From NCBI GenBank assembly GCA_963726745.1, contig CAVSDR010000002.1, positions 256,001 through 320,000 of the forward strand: 64,000 nt of DNA, given 5' to 3'. The notes under the pieces were generated by a model, which ran no database searches, had not been told where the DNA came from, and was given only the letters and a program-made list of their open reading frames with translations. Source of the DNA: an uncultured Verrucomicrobiae bacterium (GTDB lineage: Bacteria > Verrucomicrobiota > Verrucomicrobiia > Chthoniobacterales > UBA10450). Positions 5,297 to 56,655 of this stretch are shown in pieces. The first letter of the stretch is position 1. Each line of letters begins with the position of its first letter. The position numbers were made by a program, and so were the translations under genes.

Positions 5297-5309
5297 AGAA
5301 TTTAGCCAG

Positions 5310-5834
5310 CTAGTTCAAGCGAAAACGCGGCTCGGGATTTTCCGCCGGCCGGGCCGGGTCCAGGTTCATCGCCTTCTCCGGCTTCATCCCGACGAAGAGG
5401 ACCGCGGCCAGCGCCGGGATCGCGGCATCGACCACCGTGTGGTGCGCGCCGAGCAGATGGCGCGAAGTTTCCGGCGGCAGTTCGCTGCCCGGCGCGAGAT
5501 GGTGGCTGGTGTGGAAGCGCAGCTCGCCGTCGTCGCAGTCGAAGTCGAACGAGCCGATGGGCAGGGCAAAGTTCAACCGCGCGACCAGCTCGGCGCAGGC
5601 GCGGCGCCGGCTCTTCGGGGCGGTCAAGGGGAGCAACGAGAGGCAGGAGAAGCGGCCGTCGTCGTCCTCCATCGCCACGCACCGCCAGCGGCCGTGGCGG
5701 CCCTGGATGTAGAAGTCGATCACGCCCGCGTCGGTGTCCGTCGACCACCGGCATTGTTCCTCAGCAAGGACCTGCTGGAACGATTCCAAGGATTTTTTAA
5801 TCACGCGCCGAGGATAGCGGAAGGGGGCAGACAT
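5310..5834 (-). CDS. YbjN-domain protein
   Basis: AELVARLNFALPIGSFDFDCDDGELRF pattern of the YbjN family. Confidence 0.7.
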   Translation of the reverse strand: MSAPFRYPRRVIKKSLESFQQVLAEEQCRWSTDTDAGVIDFYIQGRHGRWRCVAMEDDDGRFSCLSLLPLTAPKSRRRACAELVARLNFALPIGSFDFDCDDGELRFHTSHHLAPGSELPPETSRHLLGAHHTVVDAAIPALAAVLFVGMKPEKAMNLDPARPAENPEPRFRLN

Positions 5835-5916
5835 CTGCTGACCCAGGGCGGAATTTTCTCTTTTTGAGAATTAGTCGGCAAGATCACCGGCTGCGGCGTG
5901 CCGGCGCATCCAAGAG

Positions 5917-5991
5917 TGGCTCCTGAGGTAGGACTCGAACCTACGACCAATCGGTTAACAGCCGATCGCTCTACCACTGAGCTACTCAGGA
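5917..5991 (-). tRNA. tRNA-Asn(GTT)
   Basis: TCCTGAGTAGCTCAGTGGTAGAGCGATCGGCT-GTT-AACCGATTGGTCGTAGGTTCGAGTCCTACCTCAGGAGCCA; full cloverleaf with encoded CCA. Confidence 0.97.
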
Positions 5992-6077
5992 TCGTTTCCG
6001 TCGATTGACGGGCGTATATCTTGACCACATGTCGGGCGGCGGCAAGTGCGTTTCTTTCGCTTGGTGCGCGGCGCGCT

Positions 6078-7335
6078 TTAGCGCATCTGGCCGGTGCCGC
6101 GGAGGAGGTATTTGTAGGTGGTTAATTCCTCCAAACCCATCGGGCCGCGGACGCCGATCTTGCCGGTGCTGATCCCCATCTCGGCGCCAAATCCGAACTC
6201 GCTCCCGTCGGTGAAACGCGTCGAGGCATTCCAGTAAACCGCGGCGGAATCGACCGCGCGCAGGAAGCTTTCGGCGGCGGCTTCATCGGCGGTAACGATG
6301 GCGTCGCTGTGGTGCGAGCCGTGCGTTTCGATGTGCTCGATCGCGGCCGCGAGGTCGTCCACCACGCGGACGGCGAGCTTCAACTCGAGGAACTCCGTGT
6401 CCCAATCGGCCGCGGTTGGCCCGGCGGAGCCGGGAATAGCCGGCAACTTCGAGCAGCCCGAAGGCGGTCTCGTCGCAGCGCAGTTCAAGCCCGGCCTGGG
6501 CGGCGCCGGGAGCGAAGCGCCGGAGGAAACTGCCGGCAATTTCACGATGCAGCAGGAGCGTCTCGGCAGCGTTGCAAACGCCCGGCCGCTGCGTCTTGGC
6601 GTTGAGCACGATCGCCTCGGCCATGGCCAGGTCGGCCGCGCGATCCACGAAGATCGCGCACAGGCCATGCGAGTGTTTGATCACCGGCATGCGCGCATGT
6701 TGCACCACGGTGTTGATCAAGGCCTCGCCGCCGCGCGGGACGATCACGTCAAGGTAGCGCTCCATCTCCGCGAGCAAACGGACCGCGGCCCGGTCCGTCC
6801 CCGCGACCAGCTGGATGCTGTCGTTAGGCGCGGCGGCCTGGAGCGCGGCGACAATCGCGGCGTTGGAAGCAGCGGCTTCGCTGCCGCCGCGGAGGATGAC
6901 CGCGTTACCCGTCTTGAGACAGAGCGCGGCCGCATCGCTGGTCACGTTCGGGCGCGACTCGTAGATCATGCCGACGACGCCGAGGGGGACGCGTTGTTTG
7001 CAAATGCGGAGGCCGTTTGGCCGGGTCCATTCGCGGATGATTTCGCCCACGGGATCGGGCAACGCCGCCGCGGTGCGGATGGCCTGCGCCATGGCCGCGA
7101 GGCGCGCGTCGTCGAGGCGGAGGCGGTCGATCAAAGCGCTGGCTAAATTCTGCGCCTCGGCGCGGGCGACATCCTCGGAATTAGCCGACAAGATGGCGGC
7201 GCGCTGCGCTTCCAAGGCATCGGCCATGGCCCGGAGCGCTTCGTTTTTTTCCGCAGTCGTTAGGCCGGCCAACGCCCGTGCGGCAGTGCGCGCCCGGCGT
7301 CCGAGATCGAGAATGTGCTCCGCGAGGTCCATCAA
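6078..7335 (-). CDS. proA: Glutamate-5-semialdehyde dehydrogenase (frameshift near 6420)
   Basis: [56 protein letters not shown]...RGPMGL. Confidence 0.93.
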
Positions 7336-8099: not shown

Positions 8100-8232
8100 G
8101 GGCGGCCTAGAAGACTGGAGAATGCCTGCGCGCACAAGCCTGCAACGGAAACTCGCCTTGTCCCCAAACCGCTTCACGAAAACGGCCAAACAACGCGGTC
8201 GTGCAAATCGCTGCTTAACGATAGGGTGCCGC

Positions 8233-9435: not shown

Positions 9436-9439
9436 AATC

Positions 9440-15875: not shown

Positions 15876-16826
15876 GTGCATCCTCTTCGCCAAAGTTCGC
15901 TCCGTTTCCTCACTCTCTGCTTCCTTCTGCTGGGCGCAGGCAGCGCTTTCGCCGCCCCGTCGTTCCTGATCGTCGATGGCAAAAGCGGCTACGTTTTGCA
16001 GGAGCGCGACTCGCGCCAGAAGCGGCAGGTCGGCAGTTTGACGAAAATAGCCACCGCGATGGTGGCGCTCGATTGGATGGAGCATCACGCGGGCGATCCA
16101 AACCAGCTCGCGACCATTCCGCCGGAAGCCTTCGGCAGCGGCGGCGAAAACCTCATCGGCTTCCAGCCGGGTGACCAGGTGGCCGTGCGCGACCTGCTTT
16201 ACGCGGCGCTGGTGCAATCCGACAACATCGCCGCCTACACCCTCGGCCATCATTTGGGCCAGGCGATCCAATCCGTGGTGCCGGCGGCGCCGGGCGGCAA
16301 TCCCGTGGCCACCTTCGTCGTGCAAATGAATGCGCTGGCTAAATCCTTGAAGATGGAGCGCACGCTTTTCGTGAATCCCAGCGGCGCGGATGCGAACACC
16401 AAGCCGCTTCCATATTCCACCGCGGCCGACATCGCCCGGCTCACGCGCTACGCGCTCAACAAGGCGGGCTTTCGCTTCTACGTTTCGCAGAAGCAACGGC
16501 AGATTTCCTTCACTAGCGGTGGCAAGAAAAAGGAATACCTCCTGAAGAACACCAACGAGCTCCTCGGCCAGAACGGCGTCGATGGTGTGAAGACCGGCCG
16601 GACGGCGCGCGCCGGCGATTGCCTCGTCCTTTCCGCGCAGCGCGAAGCCGAAGTGGTGAAGACGGGCGAGAATAGCGCCCAGGTCACGCCGCGCACCCTG
16701 GTCATCGTCCTGCTCGGGAGCACGAACCGCTTCGAGGAAGGCCGCCAGCTTCTGAACCTCGGCTGGCAGCTCTACGATCAATGGGCCGCCGGCGGGCGGA
16801 AGATCGAGCCGCAGAAAGTGCTCTAG
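15876..16826 (+). CDS. D-alanyl-D-alanine carboxypeptidase (peptidase S11); start approximate
   Basis: SLTK (SxxK), SDN (SxN), KTG triad; signal peptide. Confidence 0.88.
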   Translation: MHPLRQSSLRFLTLCFLLLGAGSAFAAPSFLIVDGKSGYVLQERDSRQKRQVGSLTKIATAMVALDWMEHHAGDPNQLATIPPEAFGSGGENLIGFQPGDQVAVRDLLYAALVQSDNIAAYTLGHHLGQAIQSVVPAAPGGNPVATFVVQMNALAKSLKMERTLFVNPSGADANTKPLPYSTAADIARLTRYALNKAGFRFYVSQKQRQISFTSGGKKKEYLLKNTNELLGQNGVDGVKTGRTARAGDCLVLSAQREAEVVKTGENSAQVTPRTLVIVLLGSTNRFEEGRQLLNLGWQLYDQWAAGGRKIEPQKVL

Positions 16827-19789: not shown

Positions 19790-21440
<1,651 letters not shown>

Positions 21441-24865: not shown

Positions 24866-25740
24866 ACGCGATAGCCGGTGCGAAAGAAGAGCCGATAGAT
24901 CGCGCCGCCGCAGAGGCCGCCGACGATCGGCGCGACAAGGTAAACCGTGAGCCAGCCGAGCCCATTGGCGGTGAAGGGCACGCCGCGCCAGCCAGCAAGC
25001 GAAGAGAAGAGGCGCGGCGCGAGGTCGCGCGCGGGATTGAGGCAGGCCATGGTCATCGGGCCGAGAAGCGAGATCAGGATCGTGACCGTGAGGCCGATGG
25101 TCGCGGCCGTGAGGAGTTGCGGGCGATTGGCGTTGCGCTCGTCGGTGACGCAAAAGATCACCAGCAGGAGAATGGCGGTGCCGACGACCTCGGCGGCGAA
25201 GGCGGCGCCGGGCGAGAGAATCGCGCGTGTCTCCGGCGTGAGTGCCTTGCCGCCGGGATTCGGGAAAAATTCGCCGAAGATCATGGCAGTGGCTTCGCTC
25301 CCGGCCTCGCCGCGGATGATGTTGTGCTTCGTTTCGTAGCTACGAATGGCGCCGCCGTAGAGCGCGAAGACCATGGCCGCAGCGGCGAAAGCGCCGACTA
25401 ATTGCACGCCGATATAAGGCAGGACGAGCCGCGCGGGGAAACGCGCGAAGGCGGCCGCAGCGATCGTAACCGCGGGGTTGAGATGCGCGCTGCTGAGCGA
25501 GCCGGTGAGATAAATCGCAGTCGCCACGCCCAACCCCCAGACGATCGCGACCTGAAAGACGCCCACCTGCGCGCCGGTCGTGACCGCGGCCGCGCCGCAA
25601 CCAAGACCGAAGAAGACGAGCAGGAAGGTGCCGAAGAACTCGCCGATGACCCATTTTGGAATGGGCGTCGCAGCGAGCTCGATCTCGGCCTCGGCGTGCG
25701 GCGGCGGCTCCGGTCGCGTCGCGCGAATGAACTCGGCCAT
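24862..25740 (-). CDS. MIP-family aquaglyceroporin
   Basis: GEFFGTF, AHLNPAVT, second NPARD motif. Confidence 0.92.
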   Translation of the reverse strand: MAEFIRATRPEPPPHAEAEIELAATPIPKWVIGEFFGTFLLVFFGLGCGAAAVTTGAQVGVFQVAIVWGLGVATAIYLTGSLSSAHLNPAVTIAAAAFARFPARLVLPYIGVQLVGAFAAAAMVFALYGGAIRSYETKHNIIRGEAGSEATAMIFGEFFPNPGGKALTPETRAILSPGAAFAAEVVGTAILLLVIFCVTDERNANRPQLLTAATIGLTVTILISLLGPMTMACLNPARDLAPRLFSSLAGWRGVPFTANGLGWLTVYLVAPIVGGLCGGAIYRLFFRTGYRV

Positions 25741-25753
25741 GTTGCCGGCTAAA

Positions 25754-26914
25754 TTAGCAGCAGCCGCCGGCGTCGCAGCACGAGCTCGCGTCCGTGGTGA
25801 CGGAATAATCCTGGCCCTTGGTCTCGCGCGGATGCCGGAGCGCGGTGCGGGTGCAGTCAAAGGGCTGGGCCTCCGCGAGCGGGATTTCGGTCATCGGCTC
25901 GATGAACTCGAACGACTGCGCGTAAGGCGCCTTGCGGTAGAGATTGAAGGTCTTGTCGCACACCGCGTAGCGCACGCCGCGCTCCATCCGGTGATTGTCG
26001 TCATCGAGCACTTCTCGGAAGGGACCACGATAAACGACCGCCTGGTTGCGCTCGAAACAGGGGCCCTGCTTGCCCTTGAAGGCTTCGATCGTGACCGAGC
26101 GAAACTCGATGCCTTCGACCGTTTGCCACGGCTGCGCGTCGCGCTTGAGAATCTGGATGCCGTAGAAGCCGGCCTCGCTGAACGCCTGGAGGAAGCCTTC
26201 CTCGGTGAGCGCGCCGGAGATGCAGCCGCTCCAAAGTTCTGCATCCTCCTGCAGACGCTCGGGCACTTCTTCGTCGGAAACGATATCGGAGATGACCGCG
26301 CGGCCGCCGCGGCGGAGGACGCGGAAGATTTCCTCGAAGAGCTGCCGCTTGGCCTTGGCCTCGACAAGATTGAGCACGCAGTTCGAGACGACCACATCGA
26401 CCGACTCCGTCGCGACCAGCGGAAATTTCACGCGCAATTCCTGCGCGAGTTCATCGGCGCGCAGAAAAGAAGCCGCGTCGGTGATGGGCGAGTTCTTGAG
26501 CTCGTCGTCTAATTTATCGAGATCGAGCGCGAGGTCCTGGATGCGGCCTTTGCGAAACTCGACATTGGCGTAGCCGAGGCGCTCGGCCACGATCGGCGCG
26601 TTCCGCCGCGCGACGCTGAGCATCTCATCGGTCATGTCGACCCCAATCACTTTGCCGGAAGAGCCGACCACTTGCGCGGCGATGAAGCAGATTTTCCCGG
26701 TGCCGCTGCCGAGATCGAGCACGGTTTCGCCGGCCTGCAGATACTTGCTCGGGTCGCCGCAGCCGTAATCGCGCTCGATCACTTCGGCGGGAATGATCTT
26801 GAGGAACTGCGGGTCGTAGTCGACCGGGCAGCAAAGCTTCGCTTCTGCGGCTTGCGCGCCGGCGGCGTAACGTTCGCGGACGGCGCTTTCGGGATTCAAT
26901 TTGGGGGTGCTCAT
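25754..26914 (-). CDS. arsM: Arsenite methyltransferase-like SAM-dependent methyltransferase
   Basis: LCCPVDYD, YGCGDP, LDLGSGTG, GVDMT.EML, VSNCVLNL, WSGCISGA, Cys-rich tail CCDAGGCC. Confidence 0.78.
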   Translation of the reverse strand: MSTPKLNPESAVRERYAAGAQAAEAKLCCPVDYDPQFLKIIPAEVIERDYGCGDPSKYLQAGETVLDLGSGTGKICFIAAQVVGSSGKVIGVDMTDEMLSVARRNAPIVAERLGYANVEFRKGRIQDLALDLDKLDDELKNSPITDAASFLRADELAQELRVKFPLVATESVDVVVSNCVLNLVEAKAKRQLFEEIFRVLRRGGRAVISDIVSDEEVPERLQEDAELWSGCISGALTEEGFLQAFSEAGFYGIQILKRDAQPWQTVEGIEFRSVTIEAFKGKQGPCFERNQAVVYRGPFREVLDDDNHRMERGVRYAVCDKTFNLYRKAPYAQSFEFIEPMTEIPLAEAQPFDCTRTALRHPRETKGQDYSVTTDASSCCDAGGCC

Positions 26915-27061: not shown

Positions 27062-27295
27062 ATGAACGCTCCTGACCCCGCTCCCACCACGCGCGCCCGC
27101 TCGATTTCGCCCGAAGCCTTGATCGGGACCGGGATCACGATCGCGATGGTTGGATTGCTTTTCCTCCTGCTCGGCTGGGCGCAATACATGCGCCTGGTGC
27201 ACGACGCGGCCATGATCCTCGGCGCGTTGGGCGCGGCGCTCGCGCTCCTCGGCGTGATCATCTGGATCAGCGGCGCAGCGAAGCAGCGGAATTAG
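27062..27295 (+). CDS. Small membrane protein (2 TM)
   Basis: 77 aa with two hydrophobic segments; fills the gap between flanking genes. Confidence 0.6.
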   Translation: MNAPDPAPTTRARSISPEALIGTGITIAMVGLLFLLLGWAQYMRLVHDAAMILGALGAALALLGVIIWISGAAKQRN

Positions 27296-27299
27296 CCAG

Positions 27300-28895
27300 C
27301 TAGCTGGGGGCGCCAAGTTTGTCGGTGCGCGCTTTCACGATTGCGCGGACGAGCTCGGCTGGATCGACTGGCTTGGTCAGGTATTGATCGAAGCCGCACT
27401 CGAGGGCGCGGGCGCGATCCTGCGCGCTGGCATAAGCGGTCAGGGCAATGATGGGCAGCAGCTGGCCGTTGTGTTGCTCGTGCGTGCGGAGCGTGCGCAC
27501 AAAGGCGTAGCCATCCACGCCCGGCATGGCGACATCGCTCACGATCACATCGGGATGCACCTCGGGCATGAGCGCGAGGGCATCGGCCACGGACTCGGCC
27601 ACGGTCACGGAGGCGCCGCATTTCGTCAGCGTGAGGGCGACGATCTCCCGCACACTCGCTTCGTCGTCCACCACCATCACGTGCACGCCGCGCAGGCAAT
27701 TTTCCGGGAAGTTCCGCTCCGTTGCCGCGAGCTCGCGGAGCGGTTTTGCCTGCCGGGTGTCGAGCGCCACGATCGGCAACAGGACGGTGAAAGTGCTGCC
27801 TCTTCCTTCGCCTTCGCTTGCGACTTCGATTTGCCCGCCATGCATCATGACGAGCTGATGCGCGATCGTGAGCCCAAGTCCGAGTCCGCCGTGATGGCGC
27901 GTGGAACTGCTGTCGCCCTGGCGGAAACGCTCGAAAATATGCGGCAATAAATCCGGGCCGATCCCTTTGCCGGTATCGGTCACCTGAATGACGGCGTGGG
28001 CGCGTTCGCGCACTGCGCGCAAGCGCACATGGCCGCCGCGCGGGGTGAACTTGACCGCGTTCGTGAGAAGATTCAGCACGACCTGCTGGAGGCGCATGGC
28101 GTCGGCCTCGACCAGGAGGTGATCCTCGTCGCCGAGCGCGATCTCGAGGCTCACGCCTTTCAAATCGGCCGAAGGACGAACCGCTTCGAGCGCCTCGCGG
28201 ACGACACTGATGAGGTCGAGCACGGTGCGGTCGAGGGTGAGCTTGTGATTGATGATGCGGGTAATATCGAGCACGTCCTCGATCAACCGCGCCTGGGACT
28301 CGGCGTTGCGCATGATCGAGTTGACCGCCTCCACTCGCTCCTCTTCGCTGAGGACGTTTTCCTGCATCAGGCGCGTCCAGCCGAAGACGGCATTCAAAGG
28401 CGTGCGCAGCTCGTGTGAGATCATGCCGAGGAACTGATCCTTGTGGCGGTTCTCGCGGCGCATGTCGTCGCGCGCCTGGCGGAGCGCTTCCGCGGCCAGC
28501 TTTTGCTCGTGGATATCGGTGCAGGTGCCGAACCAGTTCACGATCTCGCCCGCGTCATTCCGGAAAGGAAGCGAGCGTCCGAGGAACCAGCGATACTCGC
28601 CATCGCTCGCGCGCCGGAGGCGGAACTCGATTTCGTAGGGCAGGTCGGTGCGCATGGCTTCGTCCCAGGCGCTGTTGGCGCGCTCGCGATCTTCCGGATG
28701 GAGGAGATGATTCCACGCATCTTTCCCCGAGGTTTCCAGGGTGAGCCCGGTGTATTCGGTCCAGCGGCGATTATAAAACTCGTGCGAGCCATCGGGCCGC
28801 GCGACCCAGACGATTTGCGGCAGGTTGTCCGCCAGGGTGCGCAGGATCTCGAGTTCGCGCGGGAAGAGTTCAGCCTCGGTGGGCAGGTCGTTCAT
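27300..28895 (-). CDS. Hybrid sensor histidine kinase (PAS-HisKA-HATPase-REC)
   Basis: PAS (N.RW.EYTG, HPEDR, YRWF), SHELRTPL, NAVKFT, GGLGLGL, receiver VVDDE, SDVAMP, KP. Confidence 0.92.
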   Translation of the reverse strand: MNDLPTEAELFPRELEILRTLADNLPQIVWVARPDGSHEFYNRRWTEYTGLTLETSGKDAWNHLLHPEDRERANSAWDEAMRTDLPYEIEFRLRRASDGEYRWFLGRSLPFRNDAGEIVNWFGTCTDIHEQKLAAEALRQARDDMRRENRHKDQFLGMISHELRTPLNAVFGWTRLMQENVLSEEERVEAVNSIMRNAESQARLIEDVLDITRIINHKLTLDRTVLDLISVVREALEAVRPSADLKGVSLEIALGDEDHLLVEADAMRLQQVVLNLLTNAVKFTPRGGHVRLRAVRERAHAVIQVTDTGKGIGPDLLPHIFERFRQGDSSSTRHHGGLGLGLTIAHQLVMMHGGQIEVASEGEGRGSTFTVLLPIVALDTRQAKPLRELAATERNFPENCLRGVHVMVVDDEASVREIVALTLTKCGASVTVAESVADALALMPEVHPDVIVSDVAMPGVDGYAFVRTLRTHEQHNGQLLPIIALTAYASAQDRARALECGFDQYLTKPVDPAELVRAIVKARTDKLGAPS

Positions 28896-28981
28896 GGAGG
28901 GCGCGAGGGACACTTCGTCTTTTTGGGAGCACGAATTGTTCTTAAAAACCGCTCCGCCTGTCCACCGGGAAAGTGCGCCAA

Positions 28982-35283: not shown

Positions 35284-36039
35284 GTGAGCAGCAGCCTGCG
35301 CCTCGGAGTGAATGTCGACCATGTCGCGACCCTGCGGCAGGCGCGCTATGCGGCCATGCCCGATTCACGCAACGCCGAGCCGGACCCGGTGACGATCGCG
35401 AGCATTTGCGAACACGCCGGCGCCCACGGGATTACCGCGCACCTGCGCGCCGACCGCCGCCACATGCAGGATCGCGATCTGGAACGCTTGCGCGCGAACG
35501 TGATGACCAAACTCAATTTCGAGATGGGAAACACGCCGGAGATTGTCGACTTCGCCCTGCGCATCGTGCCGGATGAAGTCTGCCTGGTGCCGGAGAAACG
35601 CGAGGAGGTTACGACCGAGGGCGGGCTCGACCTGGTGAAGCACGCGCGCGAGCTCGCACCGACCATCAAACGCCTGCATGCGGCCGGTATTCGCGTGAGC
35701 ATGTTCATTGACCCGGAACTCGCGCAGGTCGAGGCCGCGGTCTCGTTAGGCGCCGACATCGTGGAGCTGCACACCGGAAAATTAGCCAACGCTTTCACCG
35801 AGAAATTCGAGAAGCAGGAACTGGAACGCCTGCGCGAAGCCGCCGTGCGCGCCTTCAATTTCAACCTCCAGGTCAACGCCGGCCACGGGATCAACTACCG
35901 GAATATTGTCCGCATCCACAAGATCCCGCACCTGACCGAACTGAACATCGGCCACTCGATCGTGGCGCGAGCCGTCTTCACCGGCTTCGAGGCGGCGGTC
36001 AAGGAGATGCTCGCGGCGATGGAGGGCTACAAGGGGTGA
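35284..36039 (+). CDS. pdxJ: Pyridoxine 5'-phosphate synthase
   Basis: LGVNVDHVATLR.AR, HLR.DRRH, LVPEKREE.TTEGGL, ELHTG, AGHG, ELNIGH. Confidence 0.95.
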   Translation: MSSSLRLGVNVDHVATLRQARYAAMPDSRNAEPDPVTIASICEHAGAHGITAHLRADRRHMQDRDLERLRANVMTKLNFEMGNTPEIVDFALRIVPDEVCLVPEKREEVTTEGGLDLVKHARELAPTIKRLHAAGIRVSMFIDPELAQVEAAVSLGADIVELHTGKLANAFTEKFEKQELERLREAAVRAFNFNLQVNAGHGINYRNIVRIHKIPHLTELNIGHSIVARAVFTGFEAAVKEMLAAMEGYKG

Positions 36040-37093: not shown

Positions 37094-38749
37094 TCAAGAC
37101 TTATCGTTAGGCCGCGGAGCCACTCGGAGCAGGACCACTCCATGACCGGGGACGGTGCTTTCAAAGAAGTCCGCGAAAACCCCGAGGTCCTGCTGTCGCC
37201 AAAGGTCGCGCACTGCCGGCGCGCCGGTCAGTCCGAGGCTGGACCAGGTCACCCGGACGGTCGTCGGCTGCGTGCCGCGATTAAAAAGGCCCACCGCCCA
37301 CGAGCCATCAGCCAGCACTTTGGCAAAAATATCCGTCTGCCAGCCGCCGCCCACGCGCGTGGCCTGTTTGCCGAGCGCATCCTGGTCGACCTCGAGCACC
37401 TCGTCATTCGTCAGCAGGCCGAGGGTAAAGGGATCCAGCTTCTCGAGGTCGCAACCGAGCAGAAGCGGTCCGCCAAGCAGACACCAAAGGCTCATGTGCG
37501 CATATTGCTCATCGGAGGAGAGCCGTGTTGGCCGCATCTCCTTGCCCCAACCGAGCGTCCCGAGCACGAGCATGTCGGCATCGTTGTAATGCCCGGGACG
37601 TTGCCAGCGCGCCCAACGATCGCGCGTGAATCCGGAGCGCACCACGTCCCGCCACGAATCCTTCACATCACCCGAAGTCCGCCAGGCCTGGGCCAGCGGG
37701 GCGATCTCCCCGGCCAGCGAAAACGGCGTGTTATTGGCTACGCTCAAGACAATGTCGCGCCCGGCACTGGCAAGGGCGCGGGCCATCTCCGCGGTATGTG
37801 GCCGGTCCACCGGCACCCAATCATACTTCACGTAATCGACGCCCCAGGCGCTCCATTGCCGCACATCCTGAGTGACGAAGGACACCTGGCCAAAGGTCCG
37901 CAACTTCCGCGTGATCGCTTCCATCCAGCGCTCGCGGCGCCATCGGGTCAGCGGCTGGAGCCAGGAAAATTTAGCCAGCCACATCTCCGGTTCCCGGGGG
38001 AAACGGAACTTGAAAAATTGGTTGTGCTGCCCGCGCTCGATCCAGTCGTAGTGGCCGTCGGCGGTATCCGCGCTCGAGCCGATCTGCCCGTAGAAACTTG
38101 TCCGCCAAGGCGTCGAGTAAATCCCGAGCTTCAGGCCTAACGAATGCAAATCCGCTGCCAGCTTTCCGATGTCGGTGAACTTCGCGTTTGGCTGGATGGC
38201 GTTAAAAGGGCCGCCGCGCACCCCTTGCCAACCATCGTCGATGTTCACGTAGGTCCACCCATGATCGCGCAGCCCGCTGCGCACCAGCGCCTGCGCCGCC
38301 GCGCGCACTTTCTCCTCGGTGACGGTCCCGCCCCAGGCGTTCCAACTGTTCCAGCCCATCGGCGGCGTAAGGGCGATCTCGTCGCCCACCACGATCGTGA
38401 GCGTGCGCTCGGCGGTGCCGCGGGCGTTGCGCGCGCGCAGCAGAACCTCGTGCCGCCCGGCATCTGCGAGTTGTCCGGTGATCAAGCCGCTCTCCGGGTC
38501 TAACGAAAGGTTAGACGGCAAGTTCACCGCCTCGAATTGCATCGGCCGCTCGCCGCTGGCCGCGATCTGGAAGAGGAAAGGGGATCCCGGGCGCACGCCG
38601 AAAACTCGCGCGCCATGGATCCGCGGCGCGGGCGGCGCGGGCGGCGTGAGGATGGGAAACGCGTCCGGCTTTTCGGCCGGGCCGCACGCCGTCGCGCCGA
38701 GGCAAAACGCGGCCAGCACCAGCCGCGCGCAGTTGCGTTTCCCCTTCAT
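37094..38749 (-). CDS. GH27 alpha-galactosidase with N-terminal Ig-like domain, probable lipoprotein
   Basis: TPPMGWNSWN, NIDDGWQ, WGVDYVKYDW, WRTSGD, NDADML; lipobox-like ATAC. Confidence 0.9.
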   Translation of the reverse strand: MKGKRNCARLVLAAFCLGATACGPAEKPDAFPILTPPAPPAPRIHGARVFGVRPGSPFLFQIAASGERPMQFEAVNLPSNLSLDPESGLITGQLADAGRHEVLLRARNARGTAERTLTIVVGDEIALTPPMGWNSWNAWGGTVTEEKVRAAAQALVRSGLRDHGWTYVNIDDGWQGVRGGPFNAIQPNAKFTDIGKLAADLHSLGLKLGIYSTPWRTSFYGQIGSSADTADGHYDWIERGQHNQFFKFRFPREPEMWLAKFSWLQPLTRWRRERWMEAITRKLRTFGQVSFVTQDVRQWSAWGVDYVKYDWVPVDRPHTAEMARALASAGRDIVLSVANNTPFSLAGEIAPLAQAWRTSGDVKDSWRDVVRSGFTRDRWARWQRPGHYNDADMLVLGTLGWGKEMRPTRLSSDEQYAHMSLWCLLGGPLLLGCDLEKLDPFTLGLLTNDEVLEVDQDALGKQATRVGGGWQTDIFAKVLADGSWAVGLFNRGTQPTTVRVTWSSLGLTGAPAVRDLWRQQDLGVFADFFESTVPGHGVVLLRVAPRPNDKS

Positions 38750-40682: not shown

Positions 40683-41894
40683 TCACTGCGTGCACTCTTC
40701 AAACGCGGCCGGTTCGCCGCGCAGATGCGCCAGCGCTTCACCCGCGAGATGGAGCGACCCGGCGATTAAAACCGGGCGCGCCATCTTGCTGGCTAAATCG
40801 ATCGCAGCGCCCGTCGAGTCCGCGAGCGTGGACGGGATTTCCGGGGAAATCTCGGCGACGATCCGCGCCAGTGCCGCCGGCGGCAGCGCCCGCGGGCCGC
40901 GGAATTGCGGGAGAAAAATTGCGGCCGTGATGCCGGCTAATTCTCGAAAAATCGCGGCCGCATCCTTGTCGGTGAAGACACCGAGGATGAGCGCGGCCTG
41001 TTCGCCCGGGAACTCTTCCCGCCAGGTCTGCGCGAGCACGCGCGCGCCCGCGGGATTGTGCGCGCCATCGATCACGGTGCGCGCGGCAAAGCGCTGAAAG
41101 CGCGCCGGCCAGGCGACGTTCGCGAGGCCGCGGCCGAGCGTGGGAAGATCGATCGCAATCTCTGCGGCGGAGAGCGCCGCTGCTGCGAGGGCGGCATTTT
41201 CGCGCTGGTGTTTTCCTGGGAGCGACGAGTCCAGGGCCCCGCGGACGAAAGTCAGCGGCGCGCCGCGTTCCGCCGCCGTTTGCCGTATGACAGCAGCCGC
41301 TTCCGGCAATTGCGGCGCGGAGACGACCGGGATGCCCGGCTTGATGATGCCGGCTTTCTCGCGCGCGATTTCGCGGAGGGTGGAGCCGAGCCATTTCTGG
41401 TGATCGAGCGCGATCGGCGTGAGCACGGAGACGATGGGCGTGACCGCGTTGGTCGCATCGAGGCGGCCGCCCATGCCGGTCTCGAGGACCGCAAAAGCGC
41501 ACGCGCGTTCCGCGAAATGAAGCAGGCCGAGCGCGGTCGCGATTTCAAAAAATGTCGGGTGCGGATCCCACTCGGCCACGAGCGCGCGGATGCGCGTGAG
41601 ACCGCGCGCGACCTCCGTTTCCGCGATCATCTCGCCGTCTACCTGGATGCGTTCGCGGAAGGTGACGAGGTGCGGCGAAGTGAAGCGGCCGGTGCGATGG
41701 CCGGCCGCGCGGAGAATGGCATCGAGCATCGCGCAGACGGAGCCTTTGCCGTTCGTCCCGGCGACGTGGAGGATGCGCTGGCCCGCCGCAGGCAGCTCGA
41801 GCGCGCGCAGCAGGCGCTGGATGTTTTCCAGGCCGAGCTTGATTCCGAAAAGCTGCGTCCCGAAAAGCCAGGCGAGCGCCTCGCGATAGTTCAC
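40683..41894 (-). CDS. folC: Folylpolyglutamate/dihydrofolate synthase
   Basis: HVAGTNGKGS, FTSPHL..FRERI, ETGMGGRLDATN, EKAGIIK, DGAHN. Confidence 0.95.
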   Translation of the reverse strand: MNYREALAWLFGTQLFGIKLGLENIQRLLRALELPAAGQRILHVAGTNGKGSVCAMLDAILRAAGHRTGRFTSPHLVTFRERIQVDGEMIAETEVARGLTRIRALVAEWDPHPTFFEIATALGLLHFAERACAFAVLETGMGGRLDATNAVTPIVSVLTPIALDHQKWLGSTLREIAREKAGIIKPGIPVVSAPQLPEAAAVIRQTAAERGAPLTFVRGALDSSLPGKHQRENAALAAAALSAAEIAIDLPTLGRGLANVAWPARFQRFAARTVIDGAHNPAGARVLAQTWREEFPGEQAALILGVFTDKDAAAIFRELAGITAAIFLPQFRGPRALPPAALARIVAEISPEIPSTLADSTGAAIDLASKMARPVLIAGSLHLAGEALAHLRGEPAAFEECTQ

Positions 41895-42790: not shown

Positions 42791-43519
42791 TTAGGCGCGG
42801 GCGGCGGTCGCGGCATGGACCGAGAGCGCGCCCGCTTTCCGGAGCACGCGGGCGCATTCGCTCAAGGTCGAGCCGGTCGTTAGAACATCATCGATCACGA
42901 GCACGCGCAACCCTCGCACGTCCGCCTTTTTTCGTAAACGAAACGCATCGCGCAAGTTTTCCATGCGCGCGCTGCGATCGAAAACCGTCTGCGTGGTGGT
43001 AAAGCGGATGCGCTCGAGCACCGGCGCGAGCGGGAGCTGGCGGCGCGCGCAGAGGAGCTCGGCCAGAAGCGCGGCCTGATTGAAGCCGCGTTCGCGTTCC
43101 CGCGCGGGATGCAGCGGCACCGGCACCACGAGATCAAAACGGCGGCCGCGCAGTCGCGGGTCATCGAGCGTCTCGCAGAGCCAGTCGGCGACTGGATGCC
43201 GCAGATGGAGCGCGTGTCCGTATTTGAATTGGTGGACCAGCTTCCGCACCAGGCCGCGGCTGCGGTAGGCTGCGACCGCGCATTCGAAATGGAGACGGCG
43301 ACCGGCGCAATTCGCGCAGGAAAACGTCTGCGTGATCTCGCCGGCAAACGGCTCCGAGCAGGTGGCGCAGAACGGCGGCGTGATCCGCGGCGCCTTCGCT
43401 TGGCAGCCCGCGCAGAGATATTCTCCAGCCGCGATCGGCCGGAGGCATTCCTCGCAAAGGCTAGGGTAAAAGAGGGAGGCGAGAGCTTCCAGCGGACAGA
43501 CGAGTGCGCGCGTGAACAT
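42791..43519 (-). CDS. comF: ComF family protein (double zinc ribbon + PRTase)
   Basis: CxxC clusters, PVPLH..R.RERGFNQ, IDDVLTTGST. Confidence 0.88.
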   Translation of the reverse strand: MFTRALVCPLEALASLFYPSLCEECLRPIAAGEYLCAGCQAKAPRITPPFCATCSEPFAGEITQTFSCANCAGRRLHFECAVAAYRSRGLVRKLVHQFKYGHALHLRHPVADWLCETLDDPRLRGRRFDLVVPVPLHPARERERGFNQAALLAELLCARRQLPLAPVLERIRFTTTQTVFDRSARMENLRDAFRLRKKADVRGLRVLVIDDVLTTGSTLSECARVLRKAGALSVHAATAARA

Positions 43520-44357
43520 GCCAGAGGTGCAGGAGCAGCCAGCTAAGCAGCGCCACCGCCAGCGGAGCAATCCCAATCAGCAGGCTCTTGCCGATCCACG
43601 GGAGCGCGACGAACTCGCGCCGGGCGATTTTGTTGAAGAGCGCGCTGGCAAAAATCCAGCCGCCGTGCAGCCCGATCGGCAGCCAGAGCGAGCGCGTGCG
43701 CAGGCGCGCATCGGCCAGGATCCAGGCGAGCAGAAAAAGCGTGGTGAAACCGGCCAGGACGAGGAGCGGCTCCTGGAACTGCGAAAAGGCGTGGCCGATC
43801 GAGACCAGACCGGAATTCCACGCGACGACGGGCGAAGTCTGCTCGGGCGCTTTCAGGAAATGCAGGATCGAGAAAAGCGCTGAGCTAAAGAAAGTGGCGA
43901 GCATGGGCGTCGTCGTGCGCAAGAGCGCGCCGAGGATGAGCCCGCGGAAAAGCGGCTCCTCGATGAACGGAACGACGACAGCCGACAAGGTGCGCGAGAG
44001 AATTTCCCCGATGGGAAAATGCCCGCGCAGGCTGTAAACCCCCAGCGAGATCAGGAGCCCGCCCAGGCCGAGCAGGGGAACCGCAGCGATCCCGAAGCCG
44101 GCGCCCAAGTCGCGCCAGCGGCGGGGATTTTTCTCCAAACCCAGCTCGCCGAGGCTCCGGATTTTAAGCGACCGAAGCAGCGGCCAGAAGAGCAGCAGCG
44201 CCCAGACGAGGAGCGCGCGATGGAAGAATGTCTCGAAGTCGTAGCGCGCGAGGAAAGCGAAGCGATCGTGCGTGAGCCAGTAGATCCAGGGCGCGGTCAA
44301 AGCCCCGAGCAGCAAGGTGGCAACGAAATAGCCGAGCAGGCGGGCTGCGTCTTTCAA
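43461..44357 (-). CDS. CPBP (CAAX/Abi) intramembrane metalloprotease
   Basis: EEPLFRG, FSILH, SLW.PIGLH. Confidence 0.85.
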   Translation of the reverse strand: MKDAARLLGYFVATLLLGALTAPWIYWLTHDRFAFLARYDFETFFHRALLVWALLLFWPLLRSLKIRSLGELGLEKNPRRWRDLGAGFGIAAVPLLGLGGLLISLGVYSLRGHFPIGEILSRTLSAVVVPFIEEPLFRGLILGALLRTTTPMLATFFSSALFSILHFLKAPEQTSPVVAWNSGLVSIGHAFSQFQEPLLVLAGFTTLFLLAWILADARLRTRSLWLPIGLHGGWIFASALFNKIARREFVALPWIGKSLLIGIAPLAVALLSWLLLHLWHVHARTRLSAGSSRLPLLP

Positions 44358-44640: not shown

Positions 44641-45935
44641 GTGGGAAACGGCAGCCCTGCGCGCGGCGGATCAGCGGCACGTCTGGCATCCGTTTACCGC
44701 GATGACGGAGTGGTGCGCGCCGGAGCACGAGCCGATCGTGCTCGTGCGAGGCGAGGGGGCGCTGCTTTGGGACAGCGAGGGACGGGAATACCTCGACGGG
44801 AATTCCTCCATCTGGACGAACATCCACGGGCATAATCATCCGCGCATCAACGCGGCGATTAGACAGCAACTTGAGCGCGTGGCGCACACGTCCTTTCTCG
44901 GGTTCAGCAATCCGCCCGCGATCCAGCTCGCGGAGAAAATCGTGGGTCTTTTCCCGCCGGAAACCCTGAGCCGCGTCTTCTTTTCCGACGACGGTTCGAC
45001 CGCGATGGAGGCCGCCTTGCGGATGGTGGAGCAATATTGGCAGCTGGAAGGCGAACCGCGCGGGGAGTTGGTTGCCTTCCGGCAGGGATACCACGGCGAT
45101 ACCGCCGGCGCCGCCAGCCTTGGCGCGCACCGGATGTTCCGGGAGAATCGCACCGCGTGGCGGTTTCCGGTCAGGCAAGTCGCGAGCGTGGCGGAACTGG
45201 ACGGATTTACCGAAGACGAGCGCGCGCGGCGTGGCGGCGGTGGTGATCGAGCCGCTGGTCCAGGGTGCCGCCGGGATGAGACTTTGGCCAAAGGGGATGT
45301 TGCGGGACCTGCGGGCCTGGTGCGACCGGGCTGGGGCCCTGCTGGTGCACGATGAAGTGCTAACGGGATTTGGGCGGACGGGCACGATGTTCGCGGGGGA
45401 ACAGGAGAACGTCACTCCGGATATTTGTATTCTCGGTAAAGCGCTGACTGGAGGCTATCTTCCGTTGGCATTAACTCTCACCACGGAGAAAGTATTCGCG
45501 CCCTTTCTGCGCCGTTCTGGCGCGGAATCGACGCTCTTTTATGGTCACAGCTATAGCGGAAATGCGCTCGGGGCTGCGGCGGCACTCGCGAGCTTGCAAA
45601 TCTTTCAGGAGGAGAAAGTGCTGGCTAATTTGCAGGGGAAAATCCGCCTGTTGGAGTCGGGACTGGCGGCATTGGCCAAGCTTCCAGAGGTGACGGAAAC
45701 GCGGCAGTGCGGCTTCATTTCCGCGGTCGAGCTCGCCGGCGACGCGGCGGACGCTCGCGCGGTTTGCGTGGCCGCCCGCGCCTTTGGTTTGCTCACCCGG
45801 CCGATTCAAAACAGCGTCGTTCTGCTCCCGCCATTCTGCATCACGGAGGAGCAGTTGCGGCAAGCGACAACGGCAATTGGCCGGGCGATCGCGCAGGTGT
45901 TTGCGGCCGCGCCGCGGGAGGCGGTGAGCGTCTAG
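44624..45935 (+). CDS. bioA: 7,8-diaminopelargonate aminotransferase (frameshift near 45225)
   Basis: VWHPFT, YLDG.SS.W...HGH, FFSDDGS, YHGDT, EPLVQGA, DEV.TGFGRTG, K.LTGGYLPL. Confidence 0.9.
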
Positions 45936-46678: not shown

Positions 46679-47523
46679 TCGCGCACACGGGAAAGCCGGG
46701 GGCGGCGGAGCTGGTCCGAGCGGTCATGGAGGAATTTGCCCAAGTCGGGCTCCCGGTGCTGCTTGAGAAAGAAACGGCGCGCCTTGCTGGGCTCGCGTCG
46801 GAGTATTCAACGAGCGATCTCGGGCGCAAGACCGACCTGCTCGTGGTCCTCGGCGGCGACGGCACGATCTTGAACGCCGTGGGGCAATTAGGCGACGAGA
46901 TCAAACCGATCTTTGGGATCAACATCGGCTCGCTCGGCTTCCTGACCTGCGCCGCCTCGAGCGCCTATCGCGAGGCGGTCGCAAGCATCGCCGCCGGGCG
47001 GATCGAATTTAGCCAGCGCGCTCTACTCGACGTGCAGCTCGACCCGGTGGGGCCGGCAAAGGACCGCGTACTGCGCTGCTTGAACGATGCAGTCTTCAGC
47101 CGTGGCGAGATCTCGCGCCTCATCCGGCTGGTCGTGCGGGTGGATGGCGAGGCGCTCACAGAATTTAACGCCGACGGCTTGATCCTGGCCACGCCCACGG
47201 GCTCCACCGCTTACTCGCTCAGCGCCGGCGGACCGATTCTGGCGCCCAATTCCGGTGCGTTTGTGATCACCCCGATTTGCCCGCATACGCTCTCGAACCG
47301 TTCGATCATCGTGCCGGATTCCGCGGTCATCGAAGTGGAGGCGGCGGAGCGGGATTACCCGGTTTTCCTTACGGTCGACGGCCGGGAGCCGGTGCACGTC
47401 GAGCGCGGCTCAGTCGTGACTGTCCGTAAAGCGGCGCAATCGCTTCCGCTGGCGGCCTTGCCCGGCGTTTCCTTCTTCAGCGTCGTCCGGCAGAAACTGA
47501 AGTGGCGCGGGAGCAACGTTTAG
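46654..47523 (+). CDS. nadK: NAD kinase
   Basis: LGGDGT, N.G.LGFL, ND, DGLI.ATPTGSTAYSLSAGGP. Confidence 0.95.
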   Translation: MRPQSIGLIAHTGKPGAAELVRAVMEEFAQVGLPVLLEKETARLAGLASEYSTSDLGRKTDLLVVLGGDGTILNAVGQLGDEIKPIFGINIGSLGFLTCAASSAYREAVASIAAGRIEFSQRALLDVQLDPVGPAKDRVLRCLNDAVFSRGEISRLIRLVVRVDGEALTEFNADGLILATPTGSTAYSLSAGGPILAPNSGAFVITPICPHTLSNRSIIVPDSAVIEVEAAERDYPVFLTVDGREPVHVERGSVVTVRKAAQSLPLAALPGVSFFSVVRQKLKWRGSNV

Positions 47524-52599: not shown

Positions 52600-52699
52600 G
52601 CGCGGGCATTATACAGAGAATGCCTGCGCTGCCAGTTGAGAGTTGCGCGGGCTGCGGCGAGAATCCCGCCTGCGGCCGACCACGCCCGCCTTTCATCTT

Positions 52700-55600
52700 A
52701 TGCCTACGCTCTCCAAGGAAGACAAACTGCGCCTCCTCACCATCCTGCTCGAAAGCCGCCACGGCGACCTGCGCGAACAAAATTTGAATCGCCAGGGCAA
52801 GGGGCATTTCCACGTTTCCGGGATGGGCCACGAAGGCCTGGCCGCGCTCGGCGTGGCCATGACCGAAGGCGATTACGTCTGTCCCTACTACCGCGATCGC
52901 GGTCTGGTCCTCGGTCGCGGAGTCGCCTCCGCGCAGCTTGCGCTCGATTATTTCGCGAAGCGCAAAGGCCAAAGCCACGGCCGCCAGATGCCGTCGCATT
53001 ACAGCTACGCCGACCGCGGGATCTGGAGCGTCCCCACGCCGACCGGCGCGCAATTGCTCCCTGCCTGTGGCATCGCCTGGGGCATTCAGTTGGATAAAAA
53101 ACCGAACGTGGTCGTGACCACCATCGGTGACGCGGCTACGCGCCAGGGCGATTTCTACGAGGCGGTCTGCTTCGCCAAGGAGCGCAAGCTCCCGGTGCTT
53201 TTCGTGGTCGAGGATAACAAATACGGCATCAGCAGCCCCACGCGCAAAATCACTCCGCGCGCGCTCGACGTCCTCCAGCCGACCGATTGGCAGGAAGTGG
53301 ACGGGAGCGACGTGCAGAAAATCTACGACGCCGGCGTGGCCGCCTTTGAGAAGATGCGCACCGGCGGCGGGCCGTCGTTTTTCTGGGTGCAGATGGAGCG
53401 GCTCTCCAGCCACACCAGCTCGGATGATCACAAGCTCTACCGCAGCGCCGAGGAAATCGCCGCGCTCGAGAAGGGCGACCCGCTGCGCGCCTGGAGCGAG
53501 CGCCTAATTGCCGAAGGCGTGATCTCGCAGGCTGATTACGAGGCGCTCGACAAGGAGATCAAGGAGCGCGTGCGCAAGGAATTCAACGAAGCCGAGCGCG
53601 CCGAGGATCCGCGGGCGGACGAGCTCGAGCTGCAGGTCACCGGCGAGCTTCCCGACCTCGACGAGGAGGTTTTGCCGCCCGGCAAATACCGCATCGGCGA
53701 CACGGTCAATCGCACCCTTCATCGCGGCCTCACGAGCAGCAAAGACCGGATCATTTTCGGCGAGGACGTGGAGGACCCGAAGGGCGGCGTCTTCCGTCTG
53801 ACCCAGAAGTTGTCGACTGAATTTCCCGCGCAGGTCTTCAACTCCCCGCTGGCCGAGTCGACCATCGTCGGCGTTGCCTGCGGCCTCGCTTCCTACGGCA
53901 AGCGCCCGGTCTTCGAGCTGCAGTTCATCGACTTTATCGGGCCGGCCTGGAACCAGGTGGTGACCAATCTCTCCAATCTCCGTTGGCGCTCCTTCGGCAC
54001 CTGGAAATGCCCGCTCGTGATCTACGCTCCCTACGGCGCCTACCTCCCCGGCGGAAGCCTATGGCACAGCCAGGCGAACGAGGCCGCGCTCGCGCATTTC
54101 CCGGGGATCAACGTCGCCATCCCGAGCACGCCCGAGGACGCCGCCGGCCTCCTTTGGACCGCGATGCATTGCGAAGATCCGACCTTTGTTCTCATCCCGA
54201 AGCATCTCCTTTGGGCGGAACACGAATCCACCGAGCCCGTCCGCAGCGTCCCGCTCGGGGTTGCGCGCAAGCGGCACGCCGGCTCCGAAGTCACCCTCGT
54301 CGCCTGGGGCAACACGGTCGAGAAATCGCTCGAGGCGCTCGAGCAGATCGGGCACGACGTGAGCATCGACTTGTTAGACCTGCGCTCGATCGTTCCGTGG
54401 GATCGCGCTGCCGTCGAGGAATCCGTCCGCCGCACCGGCCGCCTCGTGGTCGTGCAGGAAGACAGCGAAAATTGCAGCGTCGGCCAGATGATCATCTCGC
54501 ACATCGCGGCGCAGCCGGAGATCTGGAATGAACTCGTTAGTCCGCCGATTTTAGTCAGCAAGAAGAACGTTATGATCGGCTACAACCCGATCTATGAATA
54601 CGCCGCCCTGCCCGACGTGGAGCGCATCGTCGCCGCGATCCGCCGCGCCATGGCGACCAAGTCCGAGCGTGCCGCGTTGGCCGCCGCGCCGCTCGCATCC
54701 GATGCCGTCGCCGTCGAAGCGAAAACCGCCGCTGCTTCCCCGGCCCCGCGCAAAACAGCCGGCAACACCACCCACAAAATCGTCGTCCCGATCATGGGCG
54801 AAGGCATCCGCAACGCCAAGGTCGTGACCTTGCTGAAGCAGCCCGGCGATTCGATCGAGCTCGACGATCCGCTCTGCGAAGTCGAAACCGACAAGGCGGT
54901 TTACCCGATCGAGTCCTCCTTCGCCGGGACCATGGGCGAGTGGAACACCGAAGTCGGCGCGACCGTCGATATCGGCGAGGAAATAGGCAGCATTCTCGGG
55001 AGCGGCGACTCGTTAGCCGACCAGATGGAGGCCGCCGCCGAAGTCTCGAGCAACGGCCACGCCGAGGTCGCGCCGGTTAAGCGCACGCCTTCCCGCCAGC
55101 CCGCCGCGATCGAGCCCGCGCTTTCGCCCACGATTGTTCGACGCCTCGGCCGCGTGGTCCCGGCAAATTTGCAGATCGACGCCCGCTGGGATGCGATCAG
55201 CGCCGCGCGCCAGGCCGCGAAAAAAGCCGACGCCAAGAGCGCGGCCACGCCCTCGGTCATGCTCGCCTGGGCGGTCGTGCGCGCGATGGAGAAACATGCG
55301 CCCTTCCGCCGCGTGATGCTCGAGGACGACAGCATCGTCGAGCACGCGGAATTCGATCTCGGCATTGCGGTTTCGCTGGAAAACGATCGCCTCGCCACCG
55401 CGGTGATCTCGAAGGCGAACCAGCTCGACTGGCCCGACTTCGTTCAGCGCTACAACGAGACCGTAAACGAAACCCGTGGCGGCCGCGTCGATGCGGTCAA
55501 CGCCCCGCTCGTGATCAGCAGCCTTGGCGCCTTTGGCGTGCGCGCGGCCGCGCCGATCGTGGTCCCGCCCTCGGTCGGCACGCTCTTCGTCGGCTCGGCC

Positions 55601-55766
55601 CACCAGGAGCTTTCCGGCGACGGGAAAAAGGACGGCCGCACGGAAGTGATCACGCTCTCGCTCACCTTCGACCACCGGGTGGTCAACGGCGCCGGCGCGG
55701 CCAACTTCGTGCACGACGATCAAGCAGGAGATCGAGAAGTTCGAGCTCCCGACCGTCGCCGCCTAA
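52700..55766 (+). CDS. 2-oxoacid dehydrogenase single-chain fusion E1alpha-E1beta-lipoyl-E2 (terminal frameshift near 55715)
   Basis: PYYRD, GDAATRQGDFYE...EDN.YGIS, HTSSDD; GEDV..KGGVF, PLAE; lipoyl EVETDKA; E2 SLTFDHRVVNG; shifted frame ends IKQEIEKFELPTVAA*. Confidence 0.88.
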
Positions 55767-55786
55767 CGAGCAGCTTTCAGCTTTCC

Positions 55787-55945
55787 CTATTCGGCCTTGG
55801 GCGGAGCGTGCTCTTCGCTCTTGCTCAATTTGTCGCCTGCTTCCTGCGGAACCGAGGGCCGATTCGTCGGGCTGATGAATTCCTCCTGCGGCGCGTCGGT
55901 CGTGGCTGCGGTGACGTGTTTCTCGTCGTCTTTGTGGTCGCTCAT
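55787..55945 (-). CDS. 52-aa acidic hypothetical protein
   Basis: MSDHKDDEKH...EEHAPPKAE*; AAGGG before ATG; fills the intergenic gap. Confidence 0.5.
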   Translation of the reverse strand: MSDHKDDEKHVTAATTDAPQEEFISPTNRPSVPQEAGDKLSKSEEHAPPKAE

Positions 55946-55978
55946 GCCCTTGAATCGTTTCCCGCCGGCGCTCCGGGT

Positions 55979-56655
55979 CTAGACTTCGGAAGTCCAGCTC
56001 TTCGAGAGTCGCGCGCCGGGCACCTGCGGGAGGATGTTGTAGTGCGAGGTGTCGTTAAAGAGCGTCAGCCGCGCGCGCGACGGATCCTTGAAATCGACGA
56101 TCGTGAGCGAGGCCGGCTCGAGGTCGAGATTGTCGCGGTAACGCCGCGGATCGAAGCCCAACAAAGTGCTGACTAAAAGCCGGATGGTCGCCTTGTGCGA
56201 GACCACCGCGACCACTTCCCCCGGATGCGCACGCACGATCTCGAGCAACACCGGGAGCGCCCGGGCGGTGACCGCGAGCCCGCTTTCACCGCCGGCCGGG
56301 CGCGAAGGAAAAGGGGTCGCGCTCCCATTCCGCCGTCTCTTCCGGGAAACGTTCCTCCACCTCCTGCCGGGTGAGCTGCTCCCAGCGGCCATGAGAAATT
56401 TCTCGCAAGCCGTCGCGCAACTGCACTTCCAAACCATGCGGCTGGGCGACGATCTGCGCGGTCTCGACTGCACGACCAAGCCCCGAGGCATAGACCGCCG
56501 CGAGCCGCGTTCCCTTCAGGCGCTCCGCCAGCGCCCGCGCCTGGGTCGCGGCCGAGCTCGGCCAGCGCGACGTCGGTTGCGCCCGCGAAACGGTCCTCCG
56601 CGCTCAGCACCGTGGCGCCATGGCGGATGAGGAAGATGCGTGTAGCCGCACTCAT
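55979..56655 (-). CDS. Histidine phosphatase (phosphoglycerate mutase) family (several frameshifts)
   Basis: IFLIRHG.T, GGESG, VVSHKATIR, FNDTSH. Confidence 0.82.

Follow-up and report, generated by a model that had tools for sequence, protein, structure and literature searches.

Which agent wrote the word, built around CTAA, that recurs in a stretch of the chromosome of an uncultured Verrucomicrobiae bacterium? The stretch, referred to as the window, comprises 64,000 nt (positions 256001-320000 of contig C2) of genome G000 (3.41 Mb, 64% GC, 94.7% complete, 7 contigs). Homologous proteins are labelled Verrucomicrobiota and Chthoniobacterales, and the 16S gene is recognisably of that kind. A preliminary description, made from the letters alone, had noted a motif GYYGRCTAA there beside a heptamer, and had offered two specificities or two dialects of one recognition system as the choice; the two are termed word B and word A, respectively. 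Word B proved to be a longer element, present in about 1,700-2,300 copies through the genes of G000. On balance it is probably bound by a second DNA-coating protein, cooperative and sequence-specific, a putative protein whose gene would have been acquired sideways and whose sites weak selection would have written.

Structure and abundance of word B

To define the word, the flanks of the 9-mer sites were aligned. The 9-mers turned out to be the middle of an asymmetric word of 16-19 bp, about SAWNKY-GYYGN-CTAWW-TY. The motif GYYGRCTAA is therefore real, but its limits had been drawn too narrowly: any base can precede CTA, CTAT is tolerated too, and the S-A left half and the T-Y tail that follows had been missed. 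The 9-mer occurs 479 times genome-wide, where an order-4 Markov model in which the word is itself included predicts 41; in coding DNA it occurs 354 times against 20 after synonymous codon shuffles. Strict copies of B, defined as cores with S-A at a fixed 4-base distance, account for 1,669 of 2,022 cores, compared with 46-333 copies when S-A is placed at other spacings. The strict word occurs 1,260 times in coding DNA and 21 times after synonymous shuffling, a 60-fold excess. Matrix sites, scored at 12 bits or more, number 2,309 genome-wide compared with 25 for the reversed matrix used as the control. Genome-wide counts of B are too high by about 9 sites owing to a 12.8 kb duplicate shared by contigs C1 and C6 at 97% identity. 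An expectation-maximization refinement of the matrix drifted into background and was dropped. The genes of G000 (3,124) were called with a purpose-built hexamer model.

The excess was not explained by mutation or codon usage. The preliminary description had judged C>T decay too weak a cause, and the genome bears this out: the C form is present in 54 copies against 57.7 expected, and the T form in 1,241 against 18. In the window, the sister forms with C, G or A replacing the T (GYYGRC[C/G/A]AA) occur 11, 16 and 16 times. Codon pairs, the other cause considered there, leave the excess over synonymous shuffles standing, and the flanks of CTAA cores, far from being random, align genome-wide to the longer word. 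Neither C>T decay nor the codon-pair account survives as a cause of B. Five of the six reading frames are used in coding DNA. The words leave a strong mark on codon usage, as 1,249 of 2,909 TTA codons (43%) and 337 of 1,354 CTA codons lie inside A or B, and 203 of the 3,124 gene ends use the stop codon of B.

Word B contains about 21 bits of information over its 16-19 positions. When single positions were released and compared with synonymous shuffles, the consensus was enriched 69-fold and off-consensus bases about 1-24-fold; such graded tolerance has the look of a protein binding preference. The bases between a fixed A and a fixed T of the word (the 'spacer') are conserved and hold much of the information.

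These properties bear on the possibility that a DNA methylase, or a subunit of a restriction-modification system, acts on B, with methyl-directed repair making new sites, as has been proposed for the cyanobacterial word HIP1. The fixed A and T, 11 bases apart, resemble those of bipartite methylase sites, and a patchy spread among genomes (see below) would suit mobile restriction genes. The informative spacer and the graded tolerance argue against a methylase, as does the exclusion of C>T decay, and two plausible DNA methylase genes but none of the C5 type were seen in a heuristic motif scan, which is not a family search. We regard this explanation as very unlikely.

Copies in the window

In the window, 48 copies of B scoring at least 12 bits were found on both strands between 2427 and 62553, of which 32 lie in called genes, 10 cross gene ends and 6 are intergenic. 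The word thus runs past both ends of the span first given for it (5300..56178). The 12 copies reported for the 9-mer were recovered at positions agreeing within 0-2 bases. All 28 sites listed for the GYYGRCTAA family are present, but the list was incomplete, further sites at 3363 and 55013 bringing the total to 30; 28 of these are followed by A or T, as claimed. The impression that most CTAA tetramers belong to the two patterns also held, at 73 of 114 in a count made for this report. Two dyads, at 25748 and 34394, do exist, but neither is a true pair, as each has one good half and both are absent from the 22 tail-to-tail pairs described below. Selected sites are as follows.

5298..5316, minus strand: word B, 23.6 bits; overlaps the stop codon of gene 5310-5804
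5867..5885, minus strand: word B, 23.9 bits; intergenic, directly beyond the tRNA at 5920-5991
7132..7150, plus strand: word B, 25.0 bits; antisense within a proA-like gene, reading Asn-Leu-Ala-Ser with a rare Leu codon
7177..7195, minus strand: word B, 25.2 bits; sense, within the same proA-like gene
16328..16346, plus strand: word B, 22.4 bits; within a gene
21373..21391, plus strand: word B, 24.4 bits; within a gene
25738..25756, plus strand: word B, 24.5 bits; contains the first dyad, the other half of which matches poorly
27288..27306, minus strand: word B, 20.8 bits; overlaps a stop codon
34384..34402, plus strand: word B, 20.6 bits; contains the second dyad, the other half of which matches poorly
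35778..35796, minus strand: word B, 25.3 bits; within a gene
37967..37985, minus strand: word B, 23.7 bits; within a gene
40782..40800, plus strand: word B, 24.4 bits; within a gene
44855..44873, minus strand: word B, 20.7 bits; T before CTA, outside the pattern GYYGRCTAA
45614..45632, plus strand: word B, 25.7 bits; the top copy of the window
47005..47023, minus strand: word B, 23.0 bits; within a gene
55013..55021, minus strand: A/B hybrid; fits the B core and word A together
56800..56818, plus strand: word B, 23.6 bits; beyond the span first given
62535..62553, minus strand: word B, 25.6 bits; CTAT type, beyond the span first given

The gene holding the copies at 7132..7150 and 7177..7195 is one that we take to be proA-like.

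Origin and distribution of the sites

Orthologous places were compared with eight relatives (559 gene matches, about 0.9 Mb of relative DNA) in gap-free codon alignments, gapped places being excluded. The B core was retained at 7 of 222 places, and the places differ by scattered point changes. Residues differed at 39% of positions at B sites compared with 28% in the flanks. Among the relatives themselves the values were 28.9% and 19.0%; since the relatives also differ more at these places, the sites were gained mostly where proteins tolerate change. Gain at tolerant sites is likewise reported for uptake sequences (PMC2817400). Residue changes found only in G000 made up 16 of 114 at sites compared with 48 of 500 (small numbers). 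Word B was gained site by site in the lineage of G000, at tolerant codons and stop codons. One DNA run, consisting of short pieces only, gave no usable variation.

The spread of B among genomes was then tallied; the tallies include genomes flagged as unpublished (G001, G008, G042 and others). Among 34 genomes of the genus, strong enrichment of the full word was confined to G000, with 1,669 copies against 21, compared with 150 against 45 in G011 and 120 against 57 in G015, with the other 31 genomes at most 1.75-fold enriched. Across 325 genomes of the family, the B core exceeded twice its reversed control in four, namely these three and G093, a member of another genus; the next three were near 1 and most were below 0.7. 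By genus labels, with no tree, the word is patchy: one genus has it in 3 of its 30 genomes, the other in 1 of 26. The left half also varies. G011 and G015 have the core with no visible left half (27 and 49 sites), and G093 has a dialect of about WGAKCGB-GYYGN-CTRW, found 359 times against 32 genome-wide; over the 771 kb covered (about a third), its matrix sites number 808 against 11. G093 is an unpublished genome on which every statement about it depends. The CTAA shared with word A is not a fixed core, as CTAT is accepted in G000 and G for the first A in G093.

A mobile-element scar or target (transposon end, recombinase site or repeat) is largely refuted by this history and seems highly improbable as the source of B. 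AP2-type domains, to which the candidate reader of word A is linked below, often derive from integrases and homing nucleases (PMC4117751), and a tandem AP2-like family moves among the genomes. However, the flanks of B sites are unrelated except in assembly duplicates and paralogues, orthologous places in the gap-free alignments differ by scattered point changes, and none of the 140 phage and genome loci listed was rich in B, with at most 3 matrix matches per 10 kb.

Spacing and pairing along the chromosome

Both strands are used equally by B, and its correlation with GC skew is r = -0.08 (31 bins). Genes carry B at 0.45 copies per kb, intergenic DNA at 0.54-0.93 per kb. Genes with low GC at third codon positions (GC3) have 0.08-0.10 copies per kb compared with 0.41-0.49, and B is also scarce in low-GC islands, one of which, 18 kb at 58% GC, forms the longest gap. 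This island (C7:66393-84736) has neither A nor B and is a marker of recent acquisition.

Neighbouring copies avoid each other at short range. Pairs of B 25-300 bp apart number 177 against 288 +/- 18 expected, the lowest of 500 draws being 240. Word A avoids itself likewise; B-A pairs are not reduced. At closer range one geometry is enriched: tail-to-tail partners exceed expectation at offset 14 (12 seen, 1.6 expected) and at offset 15 (18 seen, 0.8 expected). Of the 29 pairs with offsets of 8-23, these two offsets supply 22, and 17 of those are inside called genes. Correcting by hand for flank preference (flank columns) raised the expectation for offsets 14-15 from 2.4 to about 3.8, with 30 partners seen. 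In G093 the sites instead tile head-to-tail at 15 bp, which accounts for 26 of 68 direct pairs. Nothing convincing was found in a search for periodicity of B (helical phase and kb scale, spacings up to 4 kb).

Uptake signals often form inverted pairs that act as terminators, which is not so for B: inverted pairs after genes are rare and about 2 of the 22 tail-to-tail pairs are terminator-like. Near-perfect tail-to-tail pairs past gene ends were seen at C6:236421-236450 and C2:133106-133136; a T run follows the former, which could double as a terminator.

The spacing also bears on neutral drive, by which bound sites would accumulate through shielding from mutation or through favoured repair or gene conversion. 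Drive would account for sites lying where proteins were already tolerant, for single sites not being kept between species, and for the lack of a conservation signal between the duplicated haplotypes, which is weak. Shielding would not obviously produce self-avoidance over 300 bp, however, and the changes found only in G000 are somewhat raised at sites, small as those numbers are. We consider drive improbable, though less so than a methylase.

Word A and its candidate reader

Enrichment of word A extends through the genus and the family, and a candidate reader for it was found. P0001 is a 121-residue protein with a Lys/Ala tail, encoded outside the window at C6:137354-137719. Word A lies directly after a -10-like box of the P0001 gene in 29 of 30 loci (two of them from unpublished genomes), with a one-base variant in the 30th. 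The stop codon of P0001 in G000 itself lies within a copy of A. The protein was found in 105 of 115 family genomes that are at least 92% complete; the ratio of word A to its reversed control is about 2-74 in these 105, and the 10 that lack P0001 range over 0.5-2.6, nine of them below 1.75. In G093 the genes that flank P0001 are adjacent and the P0001 gene is gone, and A is at the control level (62 against 72). The roughly 30-fold range in the density of A among the genomes carrying P0001 suggests differing expression, affinity or age.

P0001 itself has no Pfam match. Of 27 scanned relatives, 9 match AP2 (Pfam) at E <0.001, 4 of them above the cut-off, and an Atlas cluster with 10% AP2 members scored 0.91. 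A single-sequence structure model shows three strands and a helix in that order, at moderate confidence. P0001 is regarded as AP2-like and as the likely reader of word A.

That A and B are dialects of one system, or that B is a codon or mutation artefact, is scarcely credible. Both words can hold CTAA in register, and 229 sites genome-wide are full hybrids that match the two; by estimate, this number is about the product of two independent enrichments. Against a common system or an artefact stand the 60-fold excess over shuffles, the lack of a pool of C precursors, the presence of B in G093 with neither A nor P0001, and the fact that most relatives have A and P0001 without B. The preliminary choice is thus resolved in favour of two specificities, each word avoiding copies of itself but not of the other, and their distributions differing. 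Since B occurs in G093 although P0001 is missing there, and P0001 occurs in most relatives although B does not, a separate reader is required for B.

A proposed second coating protein

The explanation that we prefer, and hold to be somewhat probable from the sequence patterns, is that this reader would cover the chromosome as a protein coat in which adjacent molecules touch one another. Its gene was likely acquired sideways. Its specificity would have drifted, giving a left half that is weak in G000, strict in G093 and not visible in G011 or G015. Weak selection would favour a single bound site in each stretch of one to two kb, a second nearby site adding little, and would likely fix single-base changes towards B. 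Word A and P0001 in the same genome would be the model case. Of the features looked for in a coating system, a long graded site with fixed neighbour geometry was found for B; a gene whose presence follows that of the word and which has it as operator was found for A (P0001), and for B the searches described next found none.

Several results weigh against this explanation. No reader of B was found by families, promoters, shared genes or protein make-up in G000, which is 94.7% complete. A second AP2-like gene was not found there with three profiles and a direct query, no promoter of G000 carries B at the operator place or stacked, and overlap, cluster and dyad screens were also empty. A screen for promoters shared by G000 and a third of G093 returned 38 genes where 34 were expected. 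The excess of pairs is small (22, among about 1,700 sites) and comes partly from flank preference, as does part of the head-to-tail excess in G093 (15 of 118 against 5.3%). Two copies of the 12.8 kb duplicate (C1:1-12776 and the end of C6), which are probably two strain haplotypes, differ at 2 of 90 informative B positions against 2.4 expected, which speaks for neither side. Support from word A is by analogy and is not proof, and the case for A is itself limited: its correlation with P0001 amounts to three separate losses, of which that in G306 is maybe an assembly gap, kin are not independent, and the top fold match of P0001, the AP2 structure of Plasmodium SIP2 (PDB 6sy0), is non-significant (E 0.74). 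Finally, self-avoidance, absence from foreign DNA and placement in tolerant codons are shared with uptake tags (PMC2817400).

Individual candidates for the reader were also considered. The single-copy HU/IHF gene was set aside as its promoter carries no word. A tandem AP2-like protein of G093 (L099:1510-1989; a relative, L100, is in G017) has relatives in all 26 of the 26 genomes making up its genus, and its family has matches in 68 of 325 family genomes (E 0.01). As a general reader of B it was rejected, being absent from G000, G011 and G015 and having its closest relatives in B-poor genomes; it may still serve in G093 alone, and the family may read a third word in its genus, which lacks P0001. 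A small paralogous pair, winged-helix-like by eye and with Ala/Lys tails (C2:186135-186497 and C3:581021-581347), was rejected since it is present in 34 of 34 genomes of the genus, and so was a 77-residue gene with B right after its start in G000 and G093, detected in 31 of the 34, with G015 among those where no copy turned up. Pfam HTH_17 and HTH_3 gave no match in G093, and no candidate emerged among Lys/Ala-tailed, small basic or internally repeated proteins. The reader may lie in an assembly gap, have another fold, or not regulate itself.

The alternative next in weight is that B is a DNA uptake signal like the DNA uptake sequences (DUS) and uptake signal sequences (USS), preferred by a surface receptor and spread by uptake and recombination. 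Copies at about 0.5-0.7 per kb on both strands, in tolerant codons, scarce in low-GC3 genes and with species dialects all agree with descriptions of DUS and USS (PMC2817400, PMC3630211). Genes for ComEC and DprA, a ComF-like gene and about 10 prepilin-like genes are present; ComEC and DprA also match in 10-11 of 14 control genomes, so this point is weak. A ComF/GntX-like gene lies in the window at 42791-43576 on the minus strand (E 2.5e-29, below the curated cut-off). Set against uptake are the patchiness of B, whereas DUS dialects track the species tree (PMC3630211), the fixed-offset pairs in genes, which a receptor would not be expected to yield, the rarity of terminator-type inverted pairs, and the sister word A, which points to an intracellular reader. 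Uptake therefore appears unlikely, though it is the more serious of the alternatives considered.

If a coating protein does read B, a wider and more tentative picture follows, in which chromatin is sequence-addressed and swappable: DNA-binding genes derived from mobile elements would become coats, each writing thousands of sites, and B would stack on the first coat or, as in G093, persist without it. One acquired gene for a cytoplasmic reader could then drive thousands of changes through the proteome. In this picture the words would label native DNA as self and preserve a record of the coat proteins that a lineage has had. Such a reader would offer a testable approach to the long-standing puzzle of their accumulation, and a new means for a major soil lineage to organise or self-mark its chromosome.

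Assembly breaks and neighbouring genes

Frameshift-like breaks occur in the assembly. In the window, genes are broken at 6078-7335 (the proA-like gene), 28920 and 39088; contigs of sequencing run X1 show short indels at 28920 and 39088, which suggests assembly errors. A VapC-like toxin gene (weak match) at 343-1214 on the minus strand, with small neighbours, is probably a toxin-antitoxin cluster.

Comparison with known systems

The USS of Pasteurellaceae and the DUS of Neisseriaceae are, like B, non-palindromic, present about once per 1-2 kb on both strands and placed in tolerant codons; they are also scarce in recently acquired genes and form dialects between species (PMC2817400 and PMC3630211). 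B matches them in its over-representation on both strands in coding DNA, its scarcity in acquired DNA and the presence of competence genes. It differs in being patchy rather than congruent with the tree, in being stacked on an independent word A, in its fixed-offset pairs within genes, and in having no shown link to pilin or uptake.

HIP1 has a matching methylase. It is an 8-bp palindrome, whereas B is asymmetric and 16-19 bp long, and no matching methylase was seen in the heuristic motif scan. Like B, HIP1 is hyper-abundant in genes, is proposed to act via its chromosomal spread and has an unknown reader (PMC5861425). From Chi, KOPS and AIMS, B differs in its lack of strand bias (judged with GC skew as the proxy for replication direction) and in being twice as long. 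All three are strand-biased octamers which, like B, are non-palindromic, genome-wide and in coding DNA; Chi and AIMS are named in PMC5861425.

Of the AP2 proteins (Pfam PF00847), the likely reader of word A would be a remote relative. A two-part word such as B would suit a two-domain reader, as in Plasmodium SIP2, where tandem AP2 domains bind two half-sites; the match to that structure is a weak fold match only. Stand-alone bacterial AP2 proteins are predicted transcription factors, not described as genome-wide coats (PMC4117751). No prior description of A, B or an AP2-type chromosome coat was found in the open-access literature.

Genome-wide words within genes are otherwise known from the two proteobacterial uptake-tag families and HIP1, the function of which is open (PMC5861425). 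In its genome behaviour B resembles both uptake tags and HIP1, but it lacks some of the features expected of each. Here two independent words coexist in one genome: A with a candidate reader, an operator and natural losses, and B, which comes and goes between genera with an altered left half and a fixed neighbour geometry.

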